Positions 11,963 to 12,194 of a DNA stretch of 39,037 bases are shown here, in pieces (position 1 is the first letter of the stretch; each line of letters opens with the position of its first letter). This stretch comes from a virus. Lineage: Duplodnaviria > Heunggongvirae > Uroviricota > Caudoviricetes. Location: IMG/VR virus record IMGVR_UViG_2778261428_000004, positions 1-39,037 of that record. One strand, 5' to 3'. The notes under the pieces are model-generated. The model did not search any database and had not been told where the DNA came from. It was given only the letters and a program-made list of their open reading frames with translations. Both the position numbers and the translations under genes were made by a program.

Positions 11963-12194
11963 CTGATGCCGCCTTAGGTTTTCGACCAGGCTTTTTACGC
12001 TGCTTTTCTTCTGGCTCTGGCTCTGGCTCTGGCTCTGGCTCTGGCTCTGCAACATCCTTCAGAAGGTCATCAGGATGTGCAAACCAGCCAGCATCCAGAT
12101 ATTCCTGAAGCTCTTCGGCTTTCACGATTTCAAAGTCGTATCCAACGCCTTTCCATTTCTTCATGTCGCCATGACGAAAGATCATGTGTGTCAT
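11940..12194 (-). CDS. Small hypothetical protein with C-terminal (Pro-Glu)6 repeat and basic tail
   Basis: ORF between coat and gp4. Start chosen at ATG 12194, which has GGAG 6 nt upstream; the longer ORF start would include the terminator hairpin. Confidence 0.45.
12011..12046. repeat. Perfect hexanucleotide tandem repeat (CTGGCT)6
   Basis: Directly visible in sequence. It encodes PEPEPE... in the small minus-strand ORF. Confidence 0.95.

Follow-up and report, generated by a model that had tools for sequence, protein, structure and literature searches.

The closest described relatives of the locus analysed here lie in P22-like phages, in which the slot between the coat gene and gene 4 is occupied, after a hairpin, by a small gene known as orf69 in P22 and orf186 in phages L and ST64T (phrog_1175 and phrog_3769). 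Homologues of the epsilon34 version, gene 6, have very different lengths, the P22 version being internally deleted, and the P22 gene has no known role and is not essential (PMC2629481); the function of orf186 has also been called unknown (PMC8022706). In a window of 39,037 nucleotides (the whole stretch of DNA that was analysed) we find, in the same slot, a minus-strand gene of 84 codons that is the counterpart, in E. coli, of P22 orf69 and corresponds to a shortened epsilon34 gene 6/phage L orf186, and in which six perfect copies of the hexanucleotide GAGCCA encode a Glu-Pro (EP) tract.

Repeats of several known kinds invite comparison with this tract. In-frame repeat polymorphism has been documented before in P22-like phages, in orf232 of L and ST64T, where the number of copies of a 15-bp coding repeat differs between genomes that are 99.9% identical; that repeat lies in another gene, in the early region, has a longer and imperfect unit of five amino acids, and was reported with a difference of one unit (PMC8022706). 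In E. coli itself, locus TR2 of the O157 MLVA scheme, the most diverse of seven loci with a diversity index of 92.2% (PMC2246123), has as its unit TGGCTC, a rotation of the CTGGCT read on the plus strand of our tract, and E. coli hexanucleotide MLVA loci have the slipped-strand behaviour of 6-bp units in common with it. The two are nevertheless different loci, since the TR2 primers are absent from the window: one finds no match, and the other only a single three-mismatch match, at chance level, about 8 kb away. Contingency loci are likewise hypermutable coding simple-sequence repeats that change by slipped-strand mispairing, but they switch genes on and off, whereas the GAGCCA tract alters protein length only: the length of its unit is divisible by three, and slippage therefore leaves the reading frame unchanged. 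Neither the frame shift nor the shift in promoter spacing that marks on/off phase variation was found here, the unit being 6 bp long and the frame kept. At the protein level, the spacer of TonB, which is regarded as extended and length-tolerant, consists of (Glu-Pro)n followed by (Lys-Pro)n, and so presents the same succession of an acidic run and a Lys/Pro-rich basic segment as the small protein, although in TonB this is no pure DNA microsatellite. Homology to TonB was not detected: the NCBIfam models of TonB, whose cut-offs are 265-377, give 8-12 bits (E = 0.1-2.3) and over residues 46-75 only, and the small protein has neither a membrane anchor nor a TonB C-terminal domain. The tract represents a new and well-documented case of a phenomenon that was already known, and the gene that contains it is conserved but has no known function. 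A literature search on P22-like small ORFs, WDGH, orf69 and EP repeats returned no paper mentioning the GAGCCA repeat; the GenBank record of phage APC_JM3.2 does mark a 'repeat_region' at the tract.

Genomic setting

The window is a nearly complete P22-like prophage with its late operon on the minus strand. It encodes a glycosyltransferase, a tailspike with a P22 head-binding domain, ejection proteins, gene 10, gene 4, coat, scaffold, portal, the large and small terminase subunits, a primase-like protein and an integrase. The minus-strand order is coat, hairpin, ribosome-binding site, 84-codon ORF, gene 4 and gene 10 (Table 1), and Pfam identifies both neighbours of the small ORF, which the first-pass annotation had rightly placed between coat and gp4. 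An equivalent of the hairpin carries the label stem_loop in the annotation of P22 and terminator in that of phage L, and the role of intra-operon terminators of this sort is not known (PMC8022706). No promoter-like site was found near the repeat or the small ORF. The 3' end of the ORF overlaps gene 4 by 23 nt, and the gene 4 Shine-Dalgarno sequence AAGGCGG (11975-11969) lies within its Pro-Lys-Ala-Ala codons; P22, L and prophages of other genera have the same overlapping layout.

Table 1. Features of the coat-gene 4 region, in window coordinates.
Feature	Position	Strand	Remarks
P22-type major coat protein gene	12239..13534	-	Upstream neighbour; PF11651, E = 2.8e-166
Terminator-like hairpin GGGAGC-TTCG-GCTCCC plus T run	12212..12233 (wider bound 12206-12233)	-	Between coat stop and small ORF
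Shine-Dalgarno GGAGA of small ORF	12200..12204	-	5 nt upstream of ATG; conserved in relatives
Small ORF	11940..12194	-	ATG 12194-12192, TGA 11942-11940; 84 aa, ends DEPDNEG; phrog_1175 match
N-terminal domain, codons 1-49	12048..12194	-	Predicted beta-hairpin plus helix; purifying selection; motif ELQxYLDxGW
(GAGCCA)6 array in codon register	12012..12047	-	(Glu-Pro)6, small-ORF codons 50-61
C-terminal part, codons 62-84	11943..12011	-	EE, basic tail, ASDEPDNEG; near-invariant DNA; gene 4 ribosome-binding region
Gene 4 (head-tail adaptor Ad3/P22_Tail-4)	11462..11962	-	ATG 11962-11960; PF11650, E = 1.3e-58

Other genes are found around this junction in some relatives. A prophage of Pectobacterium parmentieri (L087, 2746-2997) has an additional ORF of 83 aa, with no Pfam match, between coat and the small gene, which suggests that accessory genes are prone to insert at the coat-gene 4 junction. 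Phage Dewey (L001, 1-249) has a gene for an HNH endonuclease immediately upstream of coat, in the opposite orientation; the window has no insert of this type, its scaffold and coat genes abutting at 13534.

Evidence that the small ORF is a gene

The product of the small ORF matches phrog_1175, a family of unknown function, over residues 1-82 (E = 4.5e-37), and 389 relatives, nearly all annotated 'hypothetical protein', were retrieved among 5.8 billion proteins searched. Across 84 related loci, which provide 28 distinct sequences of codons 1-49, pS is 0.138 and pN 0.0135 in the frame of the ORF (pN/pS = 0.097), against pN/pS values of 2.0 and 1.2 in the other two frames, and 17 of the 27 variable sites in these codons fall at third codon positions. 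Together with the GGAGA upstream of the ATG, these results uphold the view of the first-pass annotation that this is a real gene, and selection and gene signals lead us to infer that it is translated. A 100-aa version with a GTG start (11940-12242) was rejected, since the terminator hairpin would then lie inside the coding region, which would also overlap the coat stop codon.

If the ORF were instead untranslated, the tract would be a non-coding repeat in a leader or spacer extending from the post-coat terminator to gene 4, and conservation would come only from gene 4 expression signals. The last 23 codons are indeed near-invariant in DNA and hold the gene 4 Shine-Dalgarno sequence and start, and the ORF is omitted from several annotations (IME10, Dewey). 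However, N-domain variation is codon-position-specific, with a pN/pS of about 0.1, the protein remains conserved down to 35-45% identity where the DNA of relatives has diverged, and a long form found in the same slot stays in frame through a Pfam WDGH domain into the EP tract and tail. We therefore consider it very improbable that the ORF is not translated.

The orf69/orf186 family

The small protein aligns collinearly with P22 orf69 (BLASTP, 37% identity, E = 6e-10), the N-domain and basic tail being common to both and the Glu-Pro tract standing opposite a gap; phage L orf186, which matches at both ends, hits phrog_1175 with E = 2.1e-18. All have a homologous N-domain and a basic tail of the form KKPGxKPKA, and their genes overlap the start of gene 4 at the 3' end. 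In place of (Glu-Pro)n, P22 orf69 has PVEADDV and orf186 has KEPATKE, so that orf186 of the Salmonella phages L and ST64T is devoid of the Glu-Pro repeat. The small gene thus has the architecture of the family, that is to say an N-domain, an acidic linker and a basic tail encoded over the gene 4 start. The order coat, small gene, gene 4 is the same in P22, phage L and Escherichia prophages, and it was also found wherever context was checked in prophages of Pectobacterium, Enterobacter and Klebsiella. More distant members, with 35-75% identity, occur in Klebsiella, Pectobacterium, Enterobacter, Citrobacter, Kluyvera, Yersinia, Rahnella and Buttiauxella.

In a long form present in E. coli (195-203 aa), as in orf186, a WDGH domain (PF25311) separates the N-domain from the linker; in the E. 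coli long form the linker is a (GAGCCA)n tract, with the tail after it. The 84-aa form has no WDGH domain. Long alleles occupy the small-gene slot in E. coli SJC33 (L003, 1656-2267) and EM10-18-28 (L092), with tracts of five units and one unit, respectively. RefSeq treats the SJC33 copy as a truncated pseudogene and records only a 3' fragment of the EM10-18-28 copy, although neither copy has lost its reading frame. The sequence at which the WDGH domain ends (EWDGHxxxDVLxRLL) is similar to the one at which the N-domain ends, so that a deletion between the two segments could have given rise to the short form.

The repeat tract

On direct reading, the (CTGGCT)6 that had been reported at 12011-12046 proved exact, with six perfect units, and on the minus strand it reads (GAGCCA)6, as expected for the (Pro-Glu)6 tract that had been proposed. 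The maximal perfect period-6 tract is 40 bases long (12010-12049), for which Tandem Repeats Finder gives a period of 6, 6.7 copies, 100% matches and a score of 80. Since Val-Ala precedes and Glu-Glu follows (Glu-Pro)6, A-E-(PE)6-E is an equally valid reading of the protein.

This perfect head-to-tail repeat is far above chance expectation: in 200 sequences simulated from a first-order Markov model of the 39-kb window, perfect period-6 tracts had a mean maximum length of 13.5 bases, and none was longer than 17. Tandem Repeats Finder detected no second long perfect tandem repeat in the window, and no perfect tract longer than 18 bases was found there for any other period from 1 to 11. The contention that such repeats are rare in phage structural regions consequently holds within the window, but not for the gene, in which the repeat is a family-wide trait across Enterobacterales (see below). 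Elsewhere in the window, the gene for the ejection protein gp7 (P22 gp7; ORF 8190-8885, minus strand) has weak, imperfect 6/12-bp tandem repeats at 8211-8264; these are ACCAAT/ACCAGT-like, with 2-3.7 copies and 76-100% matches, and much shorter than the EP array.

Copy-number variation among relatives

The prediction that a 6-bp unit would let tract length shift without inactivating the gene is borne out in E. coli relatives, which have 1 to 18 units between intact flanks, and none of the 84 loci in which the gene is intact departs from the frame. The 83 loci read directly have between 2 and 18 units, n being 2-14 or 18 in the 79 that have full flanks; single-unit alleles also exist in E. coli, and at the other extreme a pure array of 18 units is present in the complete genome of strain IR53017. 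Because 80 viral-contig loci were picked partly by EP-containing peptide patterns, interrupted or very short arrays are under-sampled in these counts. The tract length also differs between close relatives. Of 13 pairs of loci that are identical at all 2,547 flanking bases, eight are 1-4 units apart in n, these pairs being phylogenetically non-independent and the differences being between assemblies of different isolates; in the same way, four of the seven flank-haplotype groups with more than one member (identical flanks of about 2.5 kb) are heterogeneous in n. As a rough, order-of-magnitude estimate, given the non-independence of the pairs, the rate of change of the tract per locus would exceed that of a flanking base per site by a factor of at least a thousand. 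In a broader survey, eight isolated phages match the region at 93-98% identity with lengths that differ in 6-bp steps, and the region is matched in 217 of 5,426 complete E. coli genomes, with match lengths of 471-573 bp that differ mostly in 6-bp steps.

Short tandem repeats are prone to mis-assembly and draft or metagenome-derived contigs supplied many of the loci, which is why assembly or sequencing artefacts have to be considered as a source of the differences in copy number. However, tracts of 6-108 bp are below typical read length, the polymorphism is seen in finished RefSeq complete genomes and in isolated phage genomes as well, and the differences are always of whole units and never frameshifts in intact genes. 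An artefact is, in our view, hardly credible. Among the genomes matched, two E. coli DH5alpha assemblies (H24 and H25) contain the P22-like prophage region, and 'plasmid unnamed4' of strain 0H24 (H61), a complete circular record of 39,448 bp, is probably a phage genome since it carries coat, the small gene and gene 4.

The arrays are pure in 60 of the 79 full-flank loci. In three loci (L044, L053 and L061) a synonymous unit, GAACCA, has been amplified to 10-12 copies, which is a signature of unit-wise slippage and not of codon selection. Pure arrays of GAGCCA or GAGCCT are also found in other genera, with eight units in Kluyvera and Yersinia, seven in Buttiauxella and Citrobacter, six in Rahnella and four in Pectobacterium and Enterobacter, showing that the microsatellite is a long-standing trait of the gene rather than a quirk of the window. 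At the protein level, variants take the form (acidic-X)n, in which X is P, S, Q, T, L or others, and an EP-rich acidic spacer of at least two units is retained in most genera. The tract is missing in P22, phage L orf186 and the homologue of Citrobacter NCU1, the last of which has no linker at all.

The alternative reading as part of gene 4

The repeat could also be read in the +1 frame, as (Ser-Gln)n in an N-terminally extended gene 4 starting from an ATG at 12055. That frame is open upstream to this ATG (ORF 11462-12055), and the GenBank record of phage Dewey has such a version, of 594 nt (a 197-aa 'Ad3'), with the small ORF uncalled. Several observations speak against it. In P22, L and prophages of other genera, gene 4 starts at a conserved M-x-x-x-T-K-G-D after AAGGCGG, and coverage by PF11650 begins at residue 3 of the short version, while the ATG at 12055 directly follows the sole purine-rich stretch, with no spacer between them. 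The amplified unit GAACCA still encodes Glu-Pro, but would put Asn in place of Ser if the array were read as Ser-Gln, and it is the EP frame that is continuous with the N-domain and alone shows purifying selection. Finally, the 16 non-repeat codons of the extension would be free of stops by chance about half the time. It is thus most unlikely that the repeat belongs to gene 4. Programmed frameshifting from the EP frame into that of gene 4 inside the repeat was also considered and was rejected, the open upstream frame being explained by chance and the repeat itself.

The Dewey record (L001, PQ850600.1; 1584-2389) calls gene 4 from the upstream ATG, so that the repeat appears as Ser-Gln, and the IME10 records are without the small gene. 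The tract is accordingly a recurrent source of annotation errors: some records overlook the small gene, some prolong gene 4 through the repeat, and some label the long form a pseudogene.

Parts of the protein and a link to homing endonucleases

The AlphaFold2 model, which was built on a 25-sequence alignment and is confident for the N-domain only (about 48 folded residues), comprises two strands, a helix and a short second helix, with block-mean pLDDT values of 84-88 in the core; a model from the single sequence was poor (pLDDT 60). Values of about 46-54 for residues 50-84 indicate that this part is a predicted disordered or extended chain. The net charge of the protein is about -9, made up of -4 for the N-domain, -8 for the EP tract with the two Glu that follow it, and +3 for the tail. 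The tail, KKPGRKPKA, whose codons overlap the gene 4 start, is similar to an AT-hook but has GRK in place of the Gly-Arg-Pro core, and Pfam finds no match to PF02178 in it; a distant relative (P0133) has KRRGRPPKA, for which the AT_hook score (E = 0.047) is below the Pfam threshold. In Pfam and NCBIfam, the EP tract has only compositional matches (Trypan_PARP, TonB, E2 linkers and DarA). In one E. coli member (P0003), the N-domain ends in two tandem copies of a 13-aa segment, DAGWFSHPDDLLK, directly before the EP tract, and four database members (P0121, P0122, P0124 and P0126) are frameshifted or truncated versions.

The N-domain has in common with GIY-YIG/NUMOD3 and HNH homing endonucleases (phrog_314 and phrog_655) the ELQxYLDxGW module, of about 35 aa, and a similar predicted strand-strand-helix layout. 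These enzymes match phrog_1175 reciprocally (E = 2.2e-14 for P0129; the other module-linked proteins are P0132, P0134 and P0137). The module is present in 4-6 tandem copies in their non-catalytic parts, whereas the 84-aa protein has one copy only and no catalytic GIY-YIG or HNH nuclease domain was found in it by Pfam. When PDB sequences were searched with a profile built from the N-domain and the homing-endonuclease modules, no hit scored below E = 0.5, and fold searches were uninformative. Since the module has neither a Pfam name nor a solved structure, no function can be transferred to the N-domain, and the apparent link to homing endonucleases is a lead rather than a functional assignment.

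Mechanism and meaning of length change

The interpretation that we favour, and hold to be probable, is that the tract is a slippage-driven in-frame coding repeat in a length-tolerant linker of a genuine late gene. During phage or prophage replication, the strands of a pure (GAGCCA)n array would mispair by whole units. Mismatch repair by E. coli MutS handles loops of up to about four bases; loops of six bases would be expected to escape it, so that units would be gained and lost far faster than point mutations build up. A single slippage step would add or remove exactly one Glu-Pro dipeptide, leaving the gene intact while the length of the spacer drifts, and frequent slippage would also maintain the purity of the array. 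If the tract is a disordered or extended linker, nearly any length should be tolerated, as is suggested by the range of 1-18 units in E. coli and their absence in P22. Length tolerance is supported by this near-continuous distribution, by the lack of a tract in some relatives, by the predicted disorder and by the non-essentiality of the P22 gene. Slippage itself is a mechanism deduced from the pattern of variation, and the broad distribution of lengths is the basis for regarding spacer length as nearly neutral. The retention of an EP-rich spacer in most genera hints, at the same time, at some selection on composition or minimum length.

A different view would be that the repeat is adaptive, a contingency-like 'length dial' selected for fast change in the length and charge of the spacer. 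It might then adjust the reach or auto-inhibition of the basic tail, an interaction with the gene 4 protein, the portal or DNA, or the escape from a host defence that senses the small protein. Consistent with this, orthologous pure arrays of two different units (GAGCCA and GAGCCT) are found in many genera, between flanks with 63-82% amino-acid identity; the acidic residue (E or D) is almost always retained, while the second is P, S, Q, T or L; and each unit contributes a net charge of -1, which places about -8 beside a tail of about +3. However, there is no preferred length, n running almost continuously from 1 to 18, several homologues manage without a tract (P22, phage L orf186 and one from Citrobacter), the gene is not essential in P22 (PMC2629481) and slippage alone also predicts high purity and persistence. 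Adaptive tuning is therefore unlikely, although the fact that most lineages keep an acidic, proline-rich spacer leaves it a small share of the probability. Somewhat more doubtful still is the specific proposal that the Glu-Pro microsatellite is a selected, rapidly adjustable element, an extended rod with carboxylates at regular intervals that would mask or position the AT-hook-like tail or mimic a nucleic-acid backbone, in a conserved late protein whose module is otherwise known from homing endonucleases. If it were true, slippage would let P22-like phages retune the protein fast or evade host sensing, and the tract would be, within a cluster of phage head genes, the 'length-variation' equivalent of a phase-variable contingency locus.

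The comparison of copy number among related prophages, which had been put forward as a check in the first-pass annotation, has returned a clear answer: copy number is not invariant, and differs even between loci with identical flanks. This makes the tract a highly discriminating length marker for the typing of P22-like prophages. It also turns the spotlight on a conserved but uncharacterised small late protein, that of the P22 orf69 family, in a much-studied phage assembly gene cluster, and delimits its parts, namely an N-domain related to a homing-endonuclease module, a variable spacer and a basic tail that is translationally entangled with gene 4. Once the partner of this protein is found, the natural series of 0-18 units would provide a free 'linker-length experiment'.
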